DNA of 64,000 nucleotides from an uncultured delta proteobacterium. Its GTDB lineage: Bacteria; Desulfobacterota; Binatia; UBA9968. The translations under genes were made by a program, and so were the position numbers. Positions 3,063-21,735 of the stretch are shown here, piece by piece (position 1 is the stretch's first letter; every line of letters begins with the position of its first letter). The stretch lies in NCBI GenBank assembly GCA_963728565.1, contig CAVSLC010000028.1, positions 64,001 through 128,000 on the forward strand, given 5' to 3'. Under the pieces are notes generated by a model. The model saw only the letters and a program-made list of their open reading frames with translations. It ran no database searches and was not told the origin of the DNA.

Positions 3063-4071
3063 GTGATGATTCGTCAATCGATTTTTGCCTTGTTCATTAG
3101 CCTGTCGATTTCGTTCAGCGCCGCAGCACAGGACGCCAAGCTCGTCGAGCAGGCCAAGAAGGAGGGCGGTAAACTGATCGTCTACGGCTCGTTGGAGTCA
3201 TTTACCGTCGAGCCCATTGCCGAAGCTTTTCAAAAGAAGACCGGCATCGCGGTGGAATACTGGCGCGCTTCAGCGACCAAGGTGATGGATCGGGCGCTGA
3301 GCGAATCGCGCGCCGGCAAGCCGCTCTTTGACGTGATGTTGAACAACAGCGGCGCGATGCACGTGCTCAAAAAGGAAGGTTTGTTTATCCCCTACAGTTC
3401 TGCGGCAACCGCGGCCTTCCCCAAAGAAATCACCGATCCGCAACTGGGCCCCATTTACCGCAATACTCCCATTGGTATCGTCTACAATACCGGCGCGATT
3501 AAACCCGCCGATGCGCCCAAGTCCCTCGAGGATCTGCTCAATCCTAAATACAAGGGCAAATTCGTCATGCCCGATCCGACGCAACACACAACGACCCTGC
3601 AGTGGCTCGCCAGTCTGTATAAAATAATGGGTAAAGAGAAGGCGGAAAAGTTCACCCGCGAGCTCGGCCGCCGCCAAGCCGCTTCTGGTGGAGTCGCTGG
3701 CGCCCGCGGCTGAACGGGTATCCACGGCGGAGACTCCCCTCGGCATCAGCTTGGTAAGATACGTGGTGACGTTTTCGGAGAAGGGCGCGCCGGTCGACTA
3801 CGTCAGGCTCGGCAAGATGCTGAGCCTGGGGCAATACATCGCGCTCAGCAGCAAGGCGTCACGACCTAACAGCGGCAAGGCGTTCATCGATTTTTTTCTC
3901 GGCGATGAGAGTATGCGCATGCTCGCCAAACAAGGGGAATTTGTAAATCGCAAAGGCATCTATCCTTCGCTGCCCGATGCGGACAAGATCCAAGCCGTGG
4001 AGATGGATGACTTCGATGCTCAGGGATTCAAGGAAAAAACCCAGGAGTACCAGAAGATTTTTCTCAAATAG
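3063..4071 (+). CDS. ABC transporter extracellular solute-binding protein (Fe3+/thiamine/AfuA-like), split by a frameshift near 3665-3690
   Basis: Signal peptide, AKKEGGKLIVYGS and YNT...DAPKSLEDLLNPKYKGK; second frame continues ..PNSGKAFIDFFL.. Confidence 0.85.
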
Positions 4072-4353
4072 CAAAAGGGCTAGCCCGGATTATTCATGTT
4101 CAGAGGACAACTACGACTCTGTGTCGATCGAAGGGCGAGCCTGGAGGAGTGAAGACATCCGGACGAACAGCTTCAATGAAGCCTTTGGTGCTTGATTCCC
4201 TACTCGCACTTTTCCTCAGGCGTCCGCTCCACAACTGAATTATGCAGGCCGCTCCAACGCACAGGCCCATTTGGCTTCGTTCAAGAGGGCTCGCCGTTCG
4301 ATCCACCGTCATCAGTGAATAATTCGAGCTAGATCGTTTTACGGAGAATGATC

Positions 4354-4723
4354 ATGAACGCACCTCTCAGAGTAAGCGGTATCGATCATGTGGTCTTTCA
4401 CGTCAAAGATCTCGCGCGCGCCAGAAAATTCTAACGTCGATTTCCTCGGACTGGAAATCGACCACGAGCGGGATTGGCAGTGCTTTCTCAACTGCGGCAA
4501 ACAGAGCATCGCACTCTTTGAAGTCGACGACGGCGAAGCAGTGCATGGCGGCAGCGAGGTCAATCCTATGGCGCTGCGGCTCGGCTCGGGCGAATATGAA
4601 CGGGTCAAGGCGACACTGGAGGGCGCCGCCATCGAAGTCCATGGACGCAAGAACGATCTGCATTGCATCTACTTCCACGATCCCGATGGCCATCAGCTGC
4701 AGTTCTTAATGCCCCACGAGTAA
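4354..4723 (+). CDS. VOC/glyoxalase family protein (one extra base near 4433)
   Basis: MNAPLRVSGIDHVVFHVKDLARARKF joins VDFLGLE...CIYFHDPDGHQLQF. Confidence 0.8.
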
Positions 4724-4737
4724 CCGGCGGCTCTTTG

Positions 4738-4876
4738 CCGGATCGAGCCGTTCCAATGGTTCCAATCGTTCCATCGCTTCGCTCCGTTCAAAACGTTCAA
4801 CCGGTCAAGTCGTTCATCGGTTCGATGTTCAACGTCGGAGGGGAACTTCCACGTTCGAGAATTCCGGAAGATGAGA
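4738..4876 (+). repeat. GTTC(A/C)A tandem-unit intergenic repeat, copy B
   Basis: ccggatcgagccGTTCCAatgGTTCCAatcGTTCCAtcgcttcgctccGTTCAAaacGTTCAA...; 54/60 identical to 6236-6295 by hand alignment. Confidence 0.8.
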
Positions 4877-5109: not shown

Positions 5110-6015
5110 CTATTTTTTTTCCGGCGAGTAGTAGGTTTCCAGCAGGCGTCGGCTGATCGCCGACTCGCCACCCGGCAAAGCATCGAACTTTGTCGTACCG
5201 TCGGCTTTTTGCAGGATGGATTTTCCTTCGGGATCCTGATGCATCGACAGCAGAACCTTTTCCAAACCTTTGACCACCGACGATGCGAGATTTTTCCGAA
5301 CAGAAACAAGGTGGCGCGGCAAGCTAGCCGTTTCCCCCAAGATGGTGATCATCGATTTTTTACTTTGATCCAGTGCGGCATAATCATCGTTGCTGAACGC
5401 CCCGGCCGCGACCTTTTTGGTGAGAACCAGGTCCATGAGTTTGTCCTGAGAAGCAGCAAACACATAACCGATTTCGCCCGCAGCAACATTGGCGTCGGTT
5501 CTAGCGATCCGTGAAACCGTGAATCCCTTCCTCGTAAGAAGTAACTTCGGCAGGAAGTGGCCCGAGGTTGATTCCGGATCTTCAAAAGCGATGATCTTTC
5601 CTTTGAGGTCTTCAAGACGCTTAGTGTCACCGTCGGCCCTGGTGAAAATCAAGGCGTGGTAGTCGGCCATACCGCCTTTCCAACGCCTGAGAAGCAATTT
5701 TCCGGCGCCGTAAACGTGATTGATCGAATATGTCGGATAGGGACTCTCCATGTAAAAATCCGCCCTTCGTTCCGTGAGCATGCTTGCAAGCCGGGAATGC
5801 GTGGAAGCAATCATGACGTTGCTATCGATCTTCGATGAGGCGGACATTTTTCTTCCGACATAGCGCACGAAATCTCGAAAATGCGCCTCGACCTCCTTCT
5901 GATTTGTTTCCGCTATCATTCCTAGAGTAATCGTCTTTGCTTCCAATCCATGCTGCATCTGCGCCGACGCGCCCGAGCCCAGGATGAGCTCAAAAAAGAG
6001 AATGATAGATGCCAT
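5110..6015 (-). CDS. Phosphate/phosphite/phosphonate ABC substrate-binding protein (PhnD-like), orphan
   Basis: LEDLKGKIIAFEDPESTSGHFLP motif; no cognate permease or ATPase adjacent. Confidence 0.85.
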   Translation of the reverse strand: MASIILFFELILGSGASAQMQHGLEAKTITLGMIAETNQKEVEAHFRDFVRYVGRKMSASSKIDSNVMIASTHSRLASMLTERRADFYMESPYPTYSINHVYGAGKLLLRRWKGGMADYHALIFTRADGDTKRLEDLKGKIIAFEDPESTSGHFLPKLLLTRKGFTVSRIARTDANVAAGEIGYVFAASQDKLMDLVLTKKVAAGAFSNDDYAALDQSKKSMITILGETASLPRHLVSVRKNLASSVVKGLEKVLLSMHQDPEGKSILQKADGTTKFDALPGGESAISRRLLETYYSPEKK

Positions 6016-6159
6016 GCGCAGGCTAGCTGGGTATTTTGTTAACCATTATCGCCACGACCAGCGTTCTCGGCGTCAGGTATGATACAAACGCAAAGATCTT
6101 GCAAGAAAAAACACGGCGCATGCGCCTTTCTGGGTCGCGATCAGGGATGGAATAGAAGC

Positions 6160-6350
6160 GGTTCCAAAGATTTCACAGGTTCCAGGTGTTGCACATGTTA
6201 TAAATGTTTCCAATGTTCGAGCGCTGCGCTCTTCTCCGGATCGAGCCGTTCCCATGGTTCCAGTAATTCCATCGCTACGCTTCGTTCAAAACGTTGCAGA
6301 TCGGCCGTTCAATGTTCAACAATTCAATGGTTCGGCCTCCCGGAAACCTC
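6160..6350 (+). repeat. GTTC(A/C)A tandem-unit intergenic repeat, copy C
   Basis: Run of degenerate 8-9 bp GTT(C/T) units plus the 60-bp core shared with copy B. Confidence 0.8.
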
Positions 6351-6432
6351 ACGACAGGCTTCACTGGCGAACTCACTTCCAGCTGACAGTTCAGTCGATG
6401 CTTAGATAATCCAGCAAGACGCTAAACAACCG

Positions 6433-7270
6433 TCACTCCTCGACGGCGATGAAACGGCAGGGCGATGCGCCTCCTTGCTTGATTAAAAGAGGAAGAATGA
6501 TCATCTTCACCCGCGGCTTCGAGATCTTGTCGCAGTCGACCAGGCATTTGCAGCCGGCGATGGATTTTTTGATCAGCGCGCCGTAGCTACTCGGATGCGG
6601 GCTGCCATGCCGGTGAGCGCCTAGATCCAGTACGCGTTCCCGGGCTTCGGCCGAAGGCCATGGCTTGGGGTGCGGAACCATGGGACTCTCGCCGCGAAAC
6701 CAGTTGTTGCCCTGTACCCTGGGCGGATTTACCAGACCGCAATCCGTCATAAAAAACCCGCTGTCCATCTCGTCCATTTTCTTGGCCAATAACGATGCAG
6801 CGTCGAAATGGATGCTTGGAGTCCTTTTGTAGTAATCGATGCCAAGCTCGTAGGCGCGCTCGCGCGTGCCCCAACCTGTGCGAATCAGCACCTCGTCGCC
6901 TTTGCGGAAATCCGCGCCTTTGATCGCCTTGTCCATTTCCTCGACGGTAATCTCGTGCTGTTCAGGAACTCTGATGTCCAGGATCGCCGTGTCTCGAAGA
7001 ATAAGTCGATCGAGCGGAATCTGATCCAGTGTCCATGAAAACTTGGGGTCCGGTTGCAAAGGCGTCGGATCAAACGGCATACGCTGATGCGGGACCATGA
7101 AGGGACTGCCGGTTTCGCCATCGAGCTTCATTCGCGTCATCCTGAGACCGTGCTTGTCGTAATACATGTACTCCCAGAGCCGCACGGAGGAGTTCGTAAA
7201 CGGCAAAATTTCTCCGTAGCCCGCGCCTTCCCATATCGGCATGCGTTAAATCGATCATTTTCATGGTCAT
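6433..7270 (-). CDS. Cyclase (kynurenine formamidase-fold) family protein 1, lacking metal ligands; 1-nt indel near 7243
   Basis: MIDLT(M)PI start, TLDQIPLDRL, GDEVLIRTGWG, PLLIKQGGASPCRFIAV; ATG overlaps the upstream stop. Confidence 0.85.
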
Positions 7271-8034
7271 TCCTCCACGGCTACGACTCTGCAAGTCGAG
7301 CCTACGCCCCGGACAACGTTCAATGGCGACACGATCATCTTGATCCGCCGGCTTGTGATTTGGCCGCACCCGATAAGCTTGCGCACGGTCATGATGCCCA
7401 TTCGGGCAAATTCCATGTCTACGGCAAAATCCTTTTTAGCCTTCTCGCTGTCGTAGAGATGCAGATACATGCGCGCCTCAGGCGACTCGGCGGACGGCGG
7501 CGGCAGGATCGAGAACCATTCCGGAATGATATGGCTCTGCGGCAGCCCGAGCACTGCCGTGTCCACCAACAACAAATCATTGTCGTTGTCACGCATCGCT
7601 CGCGCCAGATATTGGGCGGCCTCGAGAGAGAAATGCGGGCTGCCAAGGACGTACTCGTTTCCCTCCGCCTGATGGTGCGGCTTGTCACCCCAACCGGTGA
7701 CAATCAGAAGCGCGTCCCCCTGCGCCGGAGTTGCGCTATCGAACGCCTGCTGCGCGTCCGACTTGTTTATTTCCTCTCCAGCGCCCTTGTTGATGTTGGC
7801 AATCGCCGCCGGCCGCAAGAAGAACTTCTCGACCGGCACCTGATCGAGCCGGGTAGTCTTGCGGAAATCGGCGAACAGCGCCGGCAATGCCAGGCTTGTT
7901 CCCGAATCGCTGCCCACGACCATGCCTTTTTCCTGGTGGTTCTTGGGCCCGAGAAAAAACTTGATCGCCGTCGGCAATCCCTCGTCGGGCATCCATCGAT
8001 GGTTCAACGGCATCGTCAGATCGACAAAATTCAT
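7267..8034 (-). CDS. Cyclase family protein 2, lacking metal ligands
   Basis: FVDLTMPL, RLDQVPVEKF, GDALLIVTGWG, PLNVVRGVGSTCRVVAV. Confidence 0.85.
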   Translation of the reverse strand: MNFVDLTMPLNHRWMPDEGLPTAIKFFLGPKNHQEKGMVVGSDSGTSLALPALFADFRKTTRLDQVPVEKFFLRPAAIANINKGAGEEINKSDAQQAFDSATPAQGDALLIVTGWGDKPHHQAEGNEYVLGSPHFSLEAAQYLARAMRDNDNDLLLVDTAVLGLPQSHIIPEWFSILPPPSAESPEARMYLHLYDSEKAKKDFAVDMEFARMGIMTVRKLIGCGQITSRRIKMIVSPLNVVRGVGSTCRVVAVEE

Positions 8035-8076
8035 ATTCCCCTCCACCTTTCTCGCGGCGCTGCTCCGGCAAATCCG

Positions 8077-9178
8077 TCACGCCGCCAACACTCTGATTCT
8101 ATCGGCCGGCATCTCCAGCCAAACGCTTTGTCCCTTGTCCAGCGGCGCAACGTATGGGTTGGTGTCGGCGCGCACATGATACTGACCGACATCGATGTCG
8201 TACTCGATGCGATTACCGGTAAACACAACCGTGCGCACCTGACCCGGCAGTACATTGACGGGCGACCCGCGGGCCGCTGTATGGATCGTTACCGCCTCGG
8301 GGCGAAACATGAGCGACACCCGTTGTCCTTGAACGATCCCGTTCGGTAATGCGCAGCGCAGCTTTCCCAGCGCGGTTTCCACGATTCCGCGCTCGCCGGC
8401 GGTCGCGTTATCTACGACCCGGCCCTCGAGCAGGTTGGTGGTGCCGACAAAGCCGGCGACGAATAGATTGGCCGGCTCCTTGTAGATGTCCATGGGCGGA
8501 CCGAGTTGTACCACCCGGCCGCCGTGCATCACCGCCATGCGGTGCGACAACACCAAGGCTTCCTCCTGATCATGAGTCACGTACAAGGCCGTCAGCTTCA
8601 ATCTCTCGAATAGACCGCGCAGCTCGTGACGCATCTCCACCCTGAAGCTTGGCGTCCAGATTACTTAACGGCTCATCCATCAGGAGCAGTTGCGGTTCGG
8701 CCACCAGGGCGCGCGCCACCGCCACACGCTGCTGCTGTCCGCCGCTCAACAAGGAGGAAGGCCGAGCTTCCAGATCATCGAGTTGAACCAGATGCAGAAT
8801 CTCCTTGACTCTCTTTTTGGTCTCGTTCCTGGGCAGCTTGCGCCGTCCGTGAACCAGCGGATAGCCGACATTCTGCGCAACGGTCATATGCGGCCACACG
8901 GCATAGGACTGAAACACCATGCCGATTTCGCGCTCGTGCACCGGCACCATGATGCCCTTCTTACTCGAAAACACCGGCTTGTCGTCGATCCAGATTTCTC
9001 CGGAATCCGGCGTTTCCAGTCCGGCGATACACCTGAGAGTAGTTGTCTTACCGCAGCCGGAGGGTCCCAGCAGCGAAAAGAATTCTCCGGTTTTGACCTC
9101 GAAGCTGACATCGTGCACGGCCTGCACCTGGCCATCACCCGTGACGAAAGTTCGGGTCAGTCCTTCTACCGTTAACAT
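8077..9178 (-). CDS. ABC transporter ATP-binding protein (FbpC/PotA-like, TOBE domain), frameshift near 8640
   Basis: GPSGCGKTT, LSGGQQQR, LLMDEPLSNLDAKL, YVTHDQEEA. Confidence 0.92.
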
Positions 9179-9197
9179 CGACGACGACCTGCCTTAG

Positions 9198-9341
9198 CAG
9201 CCTGCTGAAAAAGACCCATATGCTTCGTGCGCTCGATCACCTCACTCCGAGGTACTGTGAGTACGCCTTTGCTCGTCGAACTTCGCGCGCCTTGCCTTTG
9301 GATCCGTTTGAGCAGCCTGTAACAGAGTTTTCAGCTGCCTG
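9198..9341. mobile_element. ~144-bp MITE-like element with terminal inverted repeats and TTAG target duplication
   Basis: CAGCCTGCTGAAAA ... TTTTCAGCTGCCTG (12/14 match) flanked by TTAG at 9194-9197 and 9342-9345. Confidence 0.7.
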
Positions 9342-10475
9342 TTAGGGCATCAATGGTTGCAGTGCCTTTCTGATCTTATCGCGTTGCCCGGCGAGCACCT
9401 CCTCGGGACTCCATTCCAGTATTTTGGCTTGGGGCATCGCCTTGAGTGATTTGGCGAGCTGCGATCTTGGATCGACAAACGTGCCCTCGCCGTTGACCCG
9501 TTCGACTATCGGCAAGCCATCCTCGAGAATGAAAGCCAGATAGAGTAGCGCCAGATTGGGGCTCTTGGCGCCTTTGGGGATCGTCAAGCCGATCGAGCCG
9601 AGCGCCATCACGTCTTCAAAGAGCTTGTTTTGTATCGGGTAGCCCTCCTTGCGTAGACCTTCGGTGCCGCCAATGTTTCCGGTGGCCGCGGCGACTTCGC
9701 CCAACGCCACGGCCATGCGCACATCACCGCTGCTTCTCTTGATCAGCGGCTTATTGGCAAGCAGCATTTGCAGCACCTTCTTTTGCTTTTCTATGTCCCA
9801 GTGACCGCCGACGCCCATATCCGTGAGCGGGCTGGCAGGACCAATCGTATTAATGGCAAAATTTCCCTTCCATTTCGGATCGGTAAAACCTTTTCCTTCG
9901 GCAAACTCCTCATACGTCTTCGGCAGGTCATTGGCATTGGTCTTTTTCGTGTTGTAAATGATGCCCGATGCCAACGTGGTCACGTCAACCGAAAACGGCC
10001 GCTTCCACGCGGCCACATTGCGCAGAACTCCTTCGAGACCTTTGAATTTCGGGCTGAATATCTTAACCAGCGGCGTCTCGATATCCTCGAACAGCGCCAG
10101 CCGATCGGGCCGGCCGGCGATATCCGCCGCGCCGGCGTACAACAAATCGGCATCGATGCGGCCGACCCTCGCCTCGGTCAAGAATCTGAGCAAAGAATCC
10201 GGATTGGTCACGGGCGTAAGATGAACCCGCGGCGTGAAACCGAACCGTTTTTTGAACGCCGCTTCGAACTGCTCTCCGACTCCTCTCTCGCCCGGCACTT
10301 CCCACCACAGCCGCAACTCAGCCTCGCGTTTGGCCTTGTCGAGAACCTCTTCATAGGTCTTGCCGAACACTGATTGAGCCAGCACAACTTTTGTTGAAAG
10401 GGAGAGTAGCGCACCAATCAGCGCAAGAAATAACAACGAGACAAACGTTTTACTTGGTCTATCGACCCTGCTCAT
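9342..10475 (-). CDS. ABC transporter substrate-binding protein
   Basis: Signal peptide, KAKREAEL, IIYNTKK..DLPKTYEE..DPKWKG, AKSPNLALLY; AAGGAG RBS. Confidence 0.88.
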   Translation of the reverse strand: MSRVDRPSKTFVSLLFLALIGALLSLSTKVVLAQSVFGKTYEEVLDKAKREAELRLWWEVPGERGVGEQFEAAFKKRFGFTPRVHLTPVTNPDSLLRFLTEARVGRIDADLLYAGAADIAGRPDRLALFEDIETPLVKIFSPKFKGLEGVLRNVAAWKRPFSVDVTTLASGIIYNTKKTNANDLPKTYEEFAEGKGFTDPKWKGNFAINTIGPASPLTDMGVGGHWDIEKQKKVLQMLLANKPLIKRSSGDVRMAVALGEVAAATGNIGGTEGLRKEGYPIQNKLFEDVMALGSIGLTIPKGAKSPNLALLYLAFILEDGLPIVERVNGEGTFVDPRSQLAKSLKAMPQAKILEWSPEEVLAGQRDKIRKALQPLMP

Positions 10476-10514
10476 GTCAAACTCCTTTCGAATTTTTAGC
10501 CGCACCGGCTATCT

Positions 10515-12239
10515 TTAGAGATCTTCCCAGCCGGCTTTTTTTCTTTGTCGTTTGTCGAAGTAGCGCGCGACCATGGTAACCAGAAAGAATCCGCACATAT
10601 AAAGCGTTCCTAGCGCCGCGGTACCGGATATATCAGGAACGTTCCACAAAACCCACATGGCCGACGGTAGAATCATGTTGCGCCCGGTCATCAGAAAAAT
10701 CGCGAAAGTAAAATCGCGCAAAGTCGCGGAAAACGCCCAGAGCCAACCGTTTAGCAACGCCGGGAAGAGCAGCGGCAGTGTCACCGTCCGCACGGCGCGG
10801 ACGGTGGTCGCGCCGGTGACTCTCGCGGCTTCCTCGAGTTCCTTGTGTTGCTGCAAAAGAGCGGCGCTGAGAACGCGGGTGGTAAACGGCAGATGAGCAA
10901 CGATATGCGCCATAATTAAAACCCAGATACTGCCGTGAATCGGCGTCATGACGTAAGTCAAAAATACCGCCAGGGCCAGCACTACGTTGGGAATCCCCAT
11001 GGGCGTCATGGCGAATACTTCCACCCAGCGCATTTTGCGCTTGACCGAGAACCAACTGGCACAAAAAGCAATAAGCACCGACACTGTCGGGGCGATAACA
11101 ACAAGGATCAGCGTATTGACCGCGCTCTGCCGCACTTGAGGATTCGTCAGTGTTCGAAAATAGCTCTGCAAGCTGATCTGGCTCAGCGCTTCGAGCGAAG
11201 GCGGCTGATAAACTTTGACAAGGCTGGCCCACATCAGGATGAAAATCGGCAAAGCATAAGAAACAATCACCAGCATAACGAATCCCAAGGCGATATATTT
11301 CCAGGGACCCAACTTGAGCTGGCGCGGGCGAAAAGACTTGCCCGTAACCACGCTAAACCTGTCCTGTTGGCGCGTTAGCCAAAAATAAAGAAGCATCAGC
11401 AACAGCGCCAGCAGCAGCAAAACCACACCGAAGGCCGCGGCCAAACCGTACATCGGTAAACCGTCTTCCGCTTTGGTGAGCAGATAGATGTGAACGCTCA
11501 GCACTCGTATGCCACCAGGCACTCCGATGGCAAGCGCCGTCTCCATAACCTGTACGAGAACCATTCCGAAATAGATCAGCGCCGACAAAATACCCGGCAG
11601 CAGCAGCGGCAGAGTAATCTTGCGCAAAACCGTAAGGCGGCGGCTGCCGGCAGTCTGCGCCGCCTCCTCGAACTCCGGATTCATCTGTCTGAACACCGGG
11701 CTGAGCATCAAAAATGCGTTATTGCTGAGACCGATGCCGGTGACAAAGATCATCGCCGGCATCGTATAGATGTTCAGTGGACCGCTGGGAGCTTGAAGAC
11801 CGAGCCCGCTGCGCAGAAGATGATTGATCCAGCCAAGGCCGGGCGACAGCAGGAGTACCCAACCAAAAGCTTTCAACATGGTGGGCACCGCAAGCGATAC
11901 CAGCATCGCGGTGTAGATTACCGAGCGAAACGGAATATCGGTCCGCTCAACCAGAAACGCAATCGTCGCACCCAAGCTCAGAGATAAGATAAGCGCGCCG
12001 CCGCCATAGATCGCAGTATTAACCAAGACCTGAAACATTCGCGGACTTGAGAAAATCGCCCCGAAGTTGTCCAGCGAAACGCCAGGATCCAGAGGCAGCG
12101 CCGTCGGCGGTCGAAGACTCGTAATGAATAAAATAATAAGTGGCGCACCAAGCAGCACAAGCACGATAGCCGCTATCACTGCCGTGAGCAGACGCCCCTG
12201 CGTTCTTGAAGCTCCTCTGCTTTGCACAAATGCGTTCAT
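10515..12239 (-). CDS. ABC transporter permease (FbpB-type, duplicated BPD_transp_1)
   Basis: Two EAA motifs (EEAAQTAG, EEAARVTGA); about 12 TM segments. Confidence 0.92.
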   Translation of the reverse strand: MNAFVQSRGASRTQGRLLTAVIAAIVLVLLGAPLIILFITSLRPPTALPLDPGVSLDNFGAIFSSPRMFQVLVNTAIYGGGALILSLSLGATIAFLVERTDIPFRSVIYTAMLVSLAVPTMLKAFGWVLLLSPGLGWINHLLRSGLGLQAPSGPLNIYTMPAMIFVTGIGLSNNAFLMLSPVFRQMNPEFEEAAQTAGSRRLTVLRKITLPLLLPGILSALIYFGMVLVQVMETALAIGVPGGIRVLSVHIYLLTKAEDGLPMYGLAAAFGVVLLLLALLLMLLYFWLTRQQDRFSVVTGKSFRPRQLKLGPWKYIALGFVMLVIVSYALPIFILMWASLVKVYQPPSLEALSQISLQSYFRTLTNPQVRQSAVNTLILVVIAPTVSVLIAFCASWFSVKRKMRWVEVFAMTPMGIPNVVLALAVFLTYVMTPIHGSIWVLIMAHIVAHLPFTTRVLSAALLQQHKELEEAARVTGATTVRAVRTVTLPLLFPALLNGWLWAFSATLRDFTFAIFLMTGRNMILPSAMWVLWNVPDISGTAALGTLYMCGFFLVTMVARYFDKRQRKKAGWEDL

Positions 12240-19965: not shown

Positions 19966-20933
19966 ATGAGCTCGGCATTTGAATTCGGACTACTACTACA
20001 CACCCGCGGCATGCTCGGAGACAAGGACAGCCCGCCGAGTTTCGACGAGCTCTGGGAGGACGCCGCTTACGCCGAGCAGATGAACTTCGACCAGATCTGG
20101 TTGGGCGACAGCGTCTGCATTCTCAACCGCGCGCGCGGTGACTGTCTGACGACAATGGCGGCGCTGGCATGCAAAACCAATCGCATAAAGATCGGCACCG
20201 TTCCATTGATCGCCGCTTTGCGCAATCCCGTGTTGTTGGCGCATTCTCTTGCCACGCTTGACGTCATATCCAAGGGCAGAATTTCGGTCGCGGTGAGCGT
20301 GGCAGGGACGGCGGAGTACAATCATCGTGAGTTCATTGCCTGTGGCGTGCCCTTTCACCAAAAAGCCGGGCGCCTGAGCGAATCGCTCGTACTCATGCGC
20401 CGTCTCTGGTCGGAGAAATCGTTCGCGTTCGACGGCAGGTATTATCAGTTCAAGGAAATCGGCGTGCTCCCCAAGCCGATCCAAAAGCCTGGAATTCCGA
20501 TCTGGATTGCAGCGGCGAAAAAAACAATGCGCTGAGAAGAGTGGCAAAATTCGCCGACGGCTGGGTAACCATCGCTCACAACCTGGAGGATTTCGCCAGC
20601 CGTCGTCGAAAGATTGATCTCTATGCCGCCGAGCTCGGTCGCCGACAGGACGTGCGCGGCTCGTTACTTTTCGCTTCGCTCAACTTGGGCAGAGACGGGG
20701 AAGCCGCAAAGGAGGAAGGTTGGAGTTGGATGGAGCGCTTCTTCGGGCGGCCGCGCCGGGAAATTACCAGTCAAGCGACGATCTTCGGTACCGTGAAAGA
20801 CTGCGCGGCAATTCTCGACCGATATATCGATGCCGGTCTTACCGGCCTGATCATACGCATCGCCTCCGCGGATGAGAAAACCCAAATGCAGCGGCTGATC
20901 GAAGAGTTGAAGCCGGCTCTATCGGCCCGATGA
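19966..20933 (+). CDS. LLM-class (luciferase-like) flavin-dependent oxidoreductase, frameshift in A-run near 20520
   Basis: FDQIWLGDS, RNPVLLAHSLATLDVISKGR, PKPIQKPGIPIWIA then ADGW. Confidence 0.9.
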
Positions 20934-21036: not shown

Positions 21037-21407
21037 ATGATCGAAGTCCGCAATTTACAGAGAATCTTCCATGTCGGGCAGCGGCAAGTAGAGGCGCTAC
21101 GCCGGGTCAATCAGGAAGTCCGCGAAGGAGAATTCCTTGTGCTCCTCGGATCCAGCGGTTCGGGAAAGACAACATTGCTTCGCTGTATTGCCGGCCTGGA
21201 AACTCCCGACGACGGCGAGATTCTCATCTCGGGGCAACCGGTGTTCTCCAAGAAAGACCGCATCTATGTGCCGCCCGAAGACCGTCAAATCGGCATGGTG
21301 TTTCAATCCTATGCGATCTGGCCCCACATGACCGTATTTGATAACGTCGCCGTGCCCCTGACCTATGGGCGCAAACGAATCAAAAAACATTTGGTCCGCG
21401 ATCGAGT
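21037..21407 (+). pseudogene. Truncated ABC ATPase (N-terminal part), paralog of 8077-9178
   Basis: GSSGSGKTTLLRCIAGLETPD, GMVFQSYAIWPHMTV; ends before the signature motif and Walker B. Confidence 0.8.
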
Positions 21408-21735
21408 TCTTGCCGCTCATGGCATGGGGTTATCTGCATACCGGCTCTGTGGTATTTATCGCATCAAACATGGTGGCGGCGGCCAGGCCTCGAAACCCCG
21501 CCGGACCGCTTCGTCTCAACCGGACCTTACGCTTATACCCGCAATCCGATGTATCTCGGTCATCTGATGTACCTTCTCGGACTGAGTTTGGCATTACGCT
21601 CTTGGCTCGGCGCTGTGGGCACGATCGGCGTTGCGTTGCGGTCTCGCCGTTGAGTCATGGGCGATGAACAAGTTAGCAACCAGGCTCGGCAAGCCTTACC
21701 TGGAGTATAGGAGGAAAGTGCCACGCTGGATTTGA
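21408..21735 (+). pseudogene. Decayed ICMT/PEMT-family membrane methyltransferase, C-terminal part
   Basis: Hand translation across frames: TGPYAYTRNPMYLGH and LGKPYLEYRRKVPRWI*. Confidence 0.7.

Follow-up and report, generated by a model that had tools for sequence, protein, structure and literature searches.

A conserved pair of cyclase-fold proteins without the canonical metal site in an uncultured bacterium of the Binatia

Background

KynB and isatin hydrolase are dimeric enzymes of the cyclase fold. The characterised members of their Pfam family, PF04199 (Cyclase), are metal-dependent amidohydrolases or esterases according to passages of PMC5341072, and kynurenine formamidase, isatin hydrolase, cyclase-like esterase and dihydrophloroglucinol cyclohydrolase (DPGC) are described there and in passages of PMC10470551 as using Zn2+ or Mn2+. 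The present analysis concerns two adjacent genes on a 64,000-nucleotide (nt) stretch of DNA, referred to here as the window, from an uncultured soil-dwelling delta proteobacterium of the Binatia (GenBank assembly GCA_963728565.1, contig CAVSLC010000028.1, positions 64,001 to 128,000). The upstream cyclase-fold gene, designated CycA, lies at 7267..8034 on the minus strand, and the downstream one, designated CycB, has its main open reading frame (ORF) at 6433..7242 on the same strand. The two proteins, both of the cyclase fold, are a real and conserved pair from which the canonical metal site has been lost, and modelling of the complex indicates that they probably form a heterodimer.

Changes to the cyclase motif have been described before. 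The metagenomic esterase MGS0169 and trans-dienelactone hydrolase carry a modified motif, Q-x3-Q-x-D-x3-H, in which Asp, His and two Gln are the presumed ligands, and these enzymes still need, or are stimulated by, Mn2+ or Mg2+ (passages of PMC5341072). The motif can accordingly be altered with catalysis kept, in a family that spans ester and lactone hydrolysis; none of the MGS0169-type ligands is kept in CycA or CycB. DPGC is an Mn2+-dependent retro-Claisen C-C hydrolase with conserved metal sites, and DpsY is a proposed cyclase (passages of PMC10470551). DPGC and the cyclase-phosphotriesterase 8f9x extend the chemical range of the fold to retro-Claisen C-C and phosphotriester hydrolysis, in catabolic gene clusters as for the pair described here. 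By their structure titles 8f9x and 8hmo are metal enzymes, and no heteromeric form of DPGC or 8f9x is described in the passages of PMC10470551 or in the structure titles, whereas the pair consists of two chains. A literature search whose coverage excluded most subscription journals and the supplements of PMC5341072 and PMC10470551 found no metal-free, ligand-less or heteromeric cyclase-family protein.

Family membership and the former metal site

An earlier reading of the window, made from the sequence alone and called here the original prediction, had described tandem cyclase-fold paralogs and proposed alignment with PF04199. Both proteins exceed the PF04199 cut-off of 23.1 bits (CycB 39.7 bits, CycA 39.4 bits), and an alignment of the two with each other covers 213 residues at 30% identity (E 5e-26). 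No NCBIfam model matches CycA or CycB, and the ESM Atlas returned only their own 'putative cyclase' clusters from Candidatus Binatota. Against the PDB, single-sequence phmmer found nothing for CycA and only a match of E 0.07 for a CycB homolog, and the best E value in a profile search with CycA and CycB was 0.013, so that fold and profile-profile methods were needed. Profile-profile alignment with hhalign, using 50 CycA and 35 CycB sequences against 22 canonical cyclases carrying HxGTHxDxPxH and the downstream His and Glu, gave a probability of 99.8% for CycA and the same for CycB; for CycA this alignment is the support for the fold. The AlphaFold2 model of a CycB homolog (P0123, 95% identical) has a mean predicted local distance difference test score (pLDDT) of 92.8. 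A Foldseek search with this model gave 34 matches at E <= 0.001, and those listed (ranks 1-33) are PF04199 structures, for example 8f9x, 8hmo, 1r61, 4cog and 5nna. KynB (PDB 4cob, 4co9, 4cog) and the Mn-dependent isatin hydrolase (4j0n, 4m8d, 5nna) share this fold family with the pair, at Foldseek E values of 1e-9 to 1e-11 for the CycB model. They differ from the pair in that CycA and CycB have all six ligand columns replaced, a basic residue at the Glu column, an insert of 35-45 residues, and two diverged chains in place of one.

The ligand columns are numbered here by an aligned canonical cyclase (P0338) as H47, H51, D53, H57, H172 and E184, and CycB residues are numbered by the homolog P0124. 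The original prediction held that both proteins lack every metal ligand, and profile-profile alignment places other residues at all six columns. The H47 column is occupied by D43 in CycA (D in 48 and E in 2 of 50 sequences) and by E50 in CycB (35/35). At the H51 column CycA has S47 (S in 24 and C in 26 of 50) and CycB, in the multiple alignment, has P54 (35/35). The multiple alignment likewise gives M56 of CycB (M in 31 and I in 4 of 35) at the D53 column and Q60 at the H57 column, where CycA has the variable residues A49 and L53, respectively. The profile alignment of CycB has a 5-residue insert instead, and matches H51, D53 and H57 to the unconserved residues H59 (9/35), R61 (11/35) and D65 (17/35). 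The H172 column holds D206 in CycA (D in 11 and E in 39 of 50) and Y227 in CycB (Y in 31 and F in 4 of 35), and the E184 column holds R218 (R in 48 and K in 2 of 50) and K239 (35/35), so that the basic residue reported earlier at the Glu position is present in both chains.

In place of HxGTHxDxPxH, CycA therefore reads D-S-G-T-S-L-A-L-P-A-L and CycB E-T-G-S-P-F-M-V-P-H-Q, with conserved replacements, and the downstream His and Glu ligands of the KynB/isatin hydrolase type are represented by D/E206 and R/K218 in CycA and by Y/F227 and K239 in CycB. The strings quoted in the original prediction (DGETGSPFMVP, GSDSGTSLALP, IAGCKCL, IMTVRKL, TGW and the WF..P.P..S.EAR insert) were found in the translations, and its argument that the losses are not read errors agrees with the conservation of the replacements across the 50 CycA and 35 CycB sequences. 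Family residues that do not bind metal are invariant, namely the TGW strand, the aspartate of GxD (D158 in CycA, D174 in CycB) and the C-terminal Arg (R249 and R270), and the PL loop of the cyclase family is also kept. The four other cyclase genes of the source genome all carry an intact HxGTHxDxPxH motif. Because the replacements are conserved, other family residues are kept and all four of the other cyclases are intact, the ligand loss is specific and conserved, and it is complete at the canonical positions. The metal independence of CycA and CycB, and their chemistry, are matters of inference. Relatives of the two proteins carry the Joint Genome Institute (JGI) product name 'kynurenine formamidase', which is almost certainly wrong for them because the defining ligands are absent.

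Pairing, selection and predicted assembly

A scan of one genome per species yielded 23 related loci, all in metagenome-assembled genomes labelled Candidatus Binatia, Deltaproteobacteria or Thermodesulfobacteriota. Two of the contigs end inside CycA. The original prediction had asked whether homologs always occur as pairs, and in 21/21 testable loci CycB lies directly after CycA on the same strand; one or both genes are split into pieces in four of these (L009, L010, L015, L026). The distance from the CycA stop to the conserved CycB ATG is 1-6 nt (computed for 20 loci and read by eye for one). The sequence GGAGGA, located in the window at 7271..7276 (minus strand) within the last CycA codons (V-E-E) and 6 nt before the conserved ATG at 7264, precedes the CycB start in 19/21 loci (exceptions L024 and L025) and is likely to be the ribosome-binding site of CycB. 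Translational coupling of the two genes is plausible because of the conserved ATG 1-6 nt past the CycA stop and of this GGAGGA. The original prediction had placed the overlap at ATGA. That sequence is present, with a second ATG (7270..7268) overlapping the CycA stop (ATGA, 7270..7267) in frame with the first CycB codons, MKMIDLT, but its ATG is out of frame with ORF 7242..6433, the start conserved in relatives is the ATG past the CycA stop, and the ATGA overlap is present in some loci only.

Both genes are under strong purifying selection. The median ratio of nonsynonymous to synonymous substitution rates (dN/dS, Nei-Gojobori) is 0.11 for CycA (range 0.06-0.21; 53/91 pairs usable) and 0.061 for CycB (range 0.02-0.10; 27/91 pairs usable), calculated for the 14 loci with both genes intact from pairs with 0.05 < dS < 2; loci L007, L009-L013, L015, L023 and L026, in which genes are cut or broken, were left out. 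A maximum-likelihood tree unites the CycA-type with the CycB-type sequences (support 96/85) inside a wider ligand-less branch, and each type is strongly monophyletic (100/100), a topology that fits origin of the pair from a single duplication. At E <= 1e-20 the pair is found in 3/201 sampled genomes of the class, the source genome included, and is therefore rare and patchy among the genomes searched. No fused CycA-CycB protein was found among longer proteins (448-2000 amino acids, aa), which is weak evidence. A 254-nt contig from a soil metatranscriptome library (X15), 90-95% alike, bridges the CycA/CycB junction (window 7056..7310). It is a weak hint that the pair of a relative is expressed on one RNA, and DNA carry-over could also explain it.

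Modelling of the heterodimer had been named in the original prediction as a check. The predicted CycA-CycB complex has interaction scores (ipSAE, interaction prediction score from aligned errors) of 0.95, 0.94 and 0.94 in three runs, and the best of three controls scored 0.00. The models contain 160-162 interface contacts, of which at least 96% agree between runs, and have a pLDDT of 87-91 for the partner and 93 for CycA. The interface is predicted to be formed by the strand before the former motif (CycA 34-43; CycB 37-51 in the numbering of P0123), with the N-terminal strand and loop of each chain packing on the PL loop of the partner, and to include the conserved C-terminal Arg of both chains as well as H12, E35, K36 and D43 of CycA. 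Several points weigh against taking this score as proof of a heterodimer. The ipSAE mark is reached by 116/157 solved complexes and 2/215 mismatched pairs, counts that hold only roughly because own alignments were used here; the score does not separate hetero- from homodimers; and it may reflect likeness to a homodimer, because the family has solved homodimers.

A wider branch of ligand-less cyclases

A profile search of 1.84 billion cluster representatives gave 167 matches at E <= 1e-3, 26 of them at E <= 1e-30. The full-length matches form a small branch of proteins of about 235-280 aa without the His motif and with an insert of 35-45 residues (W...P.P..WPSxEA), which in CycA and CycB lies after the GxD strand. 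No published name was found for this uncharacterised branch of ligand-less, insert-bearing cyclases. Among 80 such sequences (alignment A4), two states occur: K or R at the E184 column together with C, S, P or T at the H51 column (60 sequences), and G, A, L or T at the E184 column together with R at the H51 column (20 sequences). Exactly one basic residue is present at the H51 or E184 column in 80/80, with no sequence having both or neither, and a tally of the same rows shows an acidic residue at the H47 column in 71/80. From this pattern, a single cationic side chain beside a carboxylate seems to be what the former metal site requires. The insert, the missing His motif and the single basic residue are all found in CycA and CycB (alignments A4 and A7), which are nested in the branch as one clade.

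The 'E-x-G-T-R' proteins of the branch (P0255, P0259, P0264 and others) have in common with CycA and CycB the insert, the loss of the His motif, and the carboxylate with one basic residue. Their basic residue is Arg at the H51 column, whereas CycA and CycB have Lys or Arg at the E184 column, and they occur as singles or tandems, whereas CycA and CycB are a separate clade and always a fixed A-then-B pair. At 26 metagenome loci the genes of the wider branch are singles, tandem pairs or triples right behind TRAP, SSF, MFS or TTT importers, followed in several cases by an aldehyde oxidoreductase or aldehyde dehydrogenase gene.

Individual loci recovered with the branch showed the following. At L036 a TRAP transporter is followed by two ligand-less cyclase-like ORFs (3932-4780 and 5720-6568), which have identical hidden Markov model scores and are separated by about 0.9 kb, and then by an aldehyde:ferredoxin oxidoreductase gene. 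At L039 a 690-aa ORF (318-2390) has its ligand-less cyclase-like domain at the C-terminus (residues 434-578) and a long N-terminal part with no Pfam match. In four unrelated assemblies (L048-L051; positions ~4000-4780 in L048) a single 'HSETGTR' cyclase-like gene, nearly identical in each, is flanked by a TRAP transporter (DctPQM) and a GntR/FCD regulator, beside a 3-hydroxyacyl-CoA dehydrogenase-like gene; what the wider branch does could be approached through these genes. A third type of cyclase (P0315, P0322, P0326, P0330, P0335, P0345 and others) is about 220 aa long, has no insert, carries the motif x-x-G-T-Y-x-E-x-x-x-H with Ala at the Glu column, and forms its own clade beside the canonical enzymes.

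Proposed mechanism and alternatives

The observations as a whole are best explained, with a confidence that stays a little under even, by an obligate heterodimeric enzyme that arose from co-translated, diverged paralogs and works without the canonical metal centre. CycA and CycB would assemble as an obligate heterodimer, and each former metal pocket would now hold a carboxylate (Asp43 or Glu50) and, paired with it, a cation (Arg218 or Lys239). This carboxylate-cation pair would stand in electrostatically for the metal and would bind or polarise a carbonyl or an anionic group. Asp158/Asp174, Arg249/Arg270, residues of the N-terminal loops and the WPSxEA-type insert of 35-45 residues would together line two composite pockets for substrate, not equivalent to each other, where the subunits meet. 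The substrate would most likely be a small organic acid or amine derivative that is imported, a proposal made because a solute importer lies directly upstream in many loci, and the reaction would most likely be a hydrolysis or ring-opening as known for the family (amide, ester, lactone or beta-diketone). If this reading is true, a metal has been swapped for a charged side-chain pair, a metalloenzyme scaffold has been re-used without its metal, and in one lineage the ligand-less branch has also split into an obligate A/B pair. A larger claim, in which the cyclase/KynB fold would have in this pair its first catalytic member that is both heteromeric and truly free of metal, with a carboxylate-cation pair for the metal, two non-equivalent composite sites, undescribed chemistry and a mechanism common to the wider 'E-x-G-T-R' branch, is possible but rather unlikely.

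Several observations count against the heterodimeric, metal-free enzyme. The Asp/Glu-Arg/Lys pairing is deduced from alignment columns and not from distances, and the covariation of the cation may represent only one or two events because its two states follow clades. The AlphaFold2 monomer model of CycA, built from an alignment of 50 sequences of at least 67% identity, has a mean pLDDT of 58.9 and is too poor for a fold search, although a low score of this kind does not show that the protein is disordered. The neighbouring genes differ between loci and do not point to a particular substrate. Invariant H12, D17, H33 and E35 of CycA, with H192 in 49/50 sequences, could form a new metal site, and carboxylates at three of the former ligand columns (D43 and D/E206 in CycA, E50 in CycB) could still bind metal.

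The last of these observations also belong to a different explanation, in which the heterodimer is still metal-dependent and uses a new site made of relocated residues, possibly shared across the interface. CycA would supply H12, H33, H192, D17, E35, D43 and D/E206 as candidate ligands; its invariant His and acidic residues, the position of H12, E35, K36 and D43 in the predicted interface, and the metal dependence of the characterised PF04199 enzymes (passages of PMC5341072 and PMC10470551) would all agree with such a site. CycB, however, has no invariant His (H219 in 32/35, H59 in 9/35), and the basic residue within the former ligand cluster of both chains disfavours a metal cation there, so this explanation is regarded as unlikely.

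Also improbable, and to a similar degree, is a pseudoenzyme complex with no catalytic activity, which would act in ligand binding, sensing or as a chaperone and whose old pocket would serve for binding only, for example in handing over or sequestering an imported solute. Such a module would account for the loss of every catalytic metal ligand, the lack of a proven nucleophile and the differences in neighbouring enzymes between loci, and the Asp/Glu-Arg/Lys pair could then be a purely structural salt bridge. It sits poorly with the very strong conservation of the pair (dN/dS 0.06-0.11), with the many invariant polar residues beyond the structural core, with retention of the non-metal active-site residues D158/D174 and R249/R270, and with the location of the genes in catabolic clusters, as for an enzyme gene.

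The pair might instead consist of one catalytic subunit and a degenerate scaffold, the candidate for the former being CycA with a possible Ser/Cys nucleophile. CycA has D43, Ser/Cys47, D/E206 and R218 clustered at four of the former ligand columns, where CycB has Pro, Met and Tyr at matching columns, and its position 47 is Ser in 24/50 and Cys in 26/50 sequences, an alternation that is typical of nucleophiles. By dN/dS, however, CycB is the more conserved partner, and the wider branch has Arg at the column of residue 47, so that Ser/Cys may be small residues that make room for Arg218. This division of roles is judged quite unlikely. Glu-Lys-Cys or Asp-Lys-Cys triads occur in nitrilase or isochorismatase-like hydrolases; a triad of E50, K239 and C240 in CycB was considered and dropped, as K239 and C240 are adjacent on one strand and C240 is unconserved in the wider branch.

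Reading frame of CycB and quality of the assembly

As printed in the window, the CycB main ORF encodes 269 aa, and the codons MKMIDLT (7244..7264, minus strand) are out of frame with the remainder of the gene, which begins with MPIWEG, owing to a +1 frameshift between the two. The 'IDLT' of CycB that the original prediction listed among the retained fold motifs therefore lies in a different frame from ORF 7242..6433, the prediction having read across the frameshift. The relatives of CycB are mostly 276 aa long, with an N-terminus M(K/R)(L/M)IDLT-MPIWEG that is continuous in one frame. A junction alignment places the extra base at 7243 or 7244 ('ACG C ATG'), the window reading ACG-C-ATG and 20/20 related loci reading AC(G/C/A/T)-ATG. 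The base is also absent from contigs of 4/4 public runs: all contigs of X1, X3 and X15 that span the position lack it, as does 28.5 of the 32.5 depth in X2, and the X1 contig without it, 545 nt long, has only 4 mismatches.

Compared with L006, the closest locus, the window carries one additional base in each of three genes, CycB (7243), the ABC ATPase gene (8643) and a binding-protein gene (3668), all in coding sequence and all within about 10 genes; the ATPase insertion (base 8645) is left out in the sole covering X2 contig. Because the base is missing in 20/20 relatives and in contigs of 4/4 runs, the frameshift in CycB is very probably an assembly error, and the organism would thus most likely make the full 276-aa CycB. 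A programmed +1 frameshift was ruled out, as no relative has the extra base and the public contigs are without it. That CycB is truly frameshifted in this strain, being translated from ATG 7242 inside the gene and lacking its first beta-strand, or belonging to a decaying pair, is very improbable: the window as printed does contain the extra base and the ATG at 7242 would permit a 269-aa product, but contigs of all four runs lack that base and one run lacks the ATPase insertion, three coding single-base insertions fall within some 10 genes, and CycB residues 3-13 lie in the predicted interface.

The source genome consists of 4.5 Mb in 28 contigs with an estimated completeness of 80.6%, and its assembly appears liable to gain single bases within genes, so gene calls here need checking against relatives, which is the practical lesson of this locus. 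The binding-protein gene at 3063..4071 is split by the insertion at 3668 relative to L006. Further genes may be broken: a luciferase-like monooxygenase ORF at 19966..20535 (plus strand) covers only profile positions 2-177 of 314 and is followed by an ORF with no Pfam match, and an ABC_tran ORF at 21037..21567 (plus strand) covers only profile positions 1-80 of 137.

Gene features and genomic context

CycA as printed is an ORF at 7267..8046 (minus strand) starting from GTG. Its start is most likely the ATG at 8034, because a Shine-Dalgarno-like GGAGG (8040..8044, minus strand) lies 5 nt before it and most of the listed relatives are 255 aa long, the length obtained from this ATG to the stop TGA at 7269..7267. 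The N-terminus of most of the listed CycA homologs is MNF(V/I/L)(D/E)LT.

An importer of the PotABC/PhnSTUV-like type lies directly upstream. Its ABC ATPase gene, of the PotA/PhnT2 type with a TOBE domain (8077..9178, minus strand; Pfam ABC_tran and TOBE_2 on two overlapping ORFs), ends 43 nt before the CycA start and is split into two ORFs by the extra base near 8643, being contiguous in L006. It is preceded by the gene for the periplasmic solute-binding protein of the importer (9342..10505, minus strand; SBP_bac_8 at 27.3 bits, barely over the cut-off of 27) and by a fused double permease gene, PhnU2/PotBC-like (10515..12239, minus strand), in which Pfam BPD_transp_1 matches twice and the best NCBIfam model, PhnU2, is below its cut-off. 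The original prediction set the pair directly behind an ABC importer; this arrangement is seen in the window and in 10/23 related loci, and as a general rule it was overstated.

Further upstream the operon of the window encodes a CMD-family protein, an M20 deacylase, an Fe-type alcohol dehydrogenase and a TctC-like binding protein, and a creatininase-family gene is divergent. In other related loci the pair is preceded by RidA, flavin reductase, bicupin, Amidohydro_2, MFS transporter or TctABC genes; NMT1-type binding proteins and M20 genes are also carried, and amidase, creatininase, creatinase-like or MOSC genes are nearby. This context points to the pair being a catabolic enzyme for an imported small organic acid or amine derivative. 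Neither the operon binding protein nor the CMD-family protein has a relative by sequence in the PDB, and they therefore give no clue to the substrate. A promoter and terminator scan of 5900-9400 found sites no commoner than in shuffles. On the opposite strand an ORF of 431 aa without a Pfam match (7054..8349, plus strand) extends over CycA as well as its junction with CycB; it has probably arisen by chance opposite the real genes.

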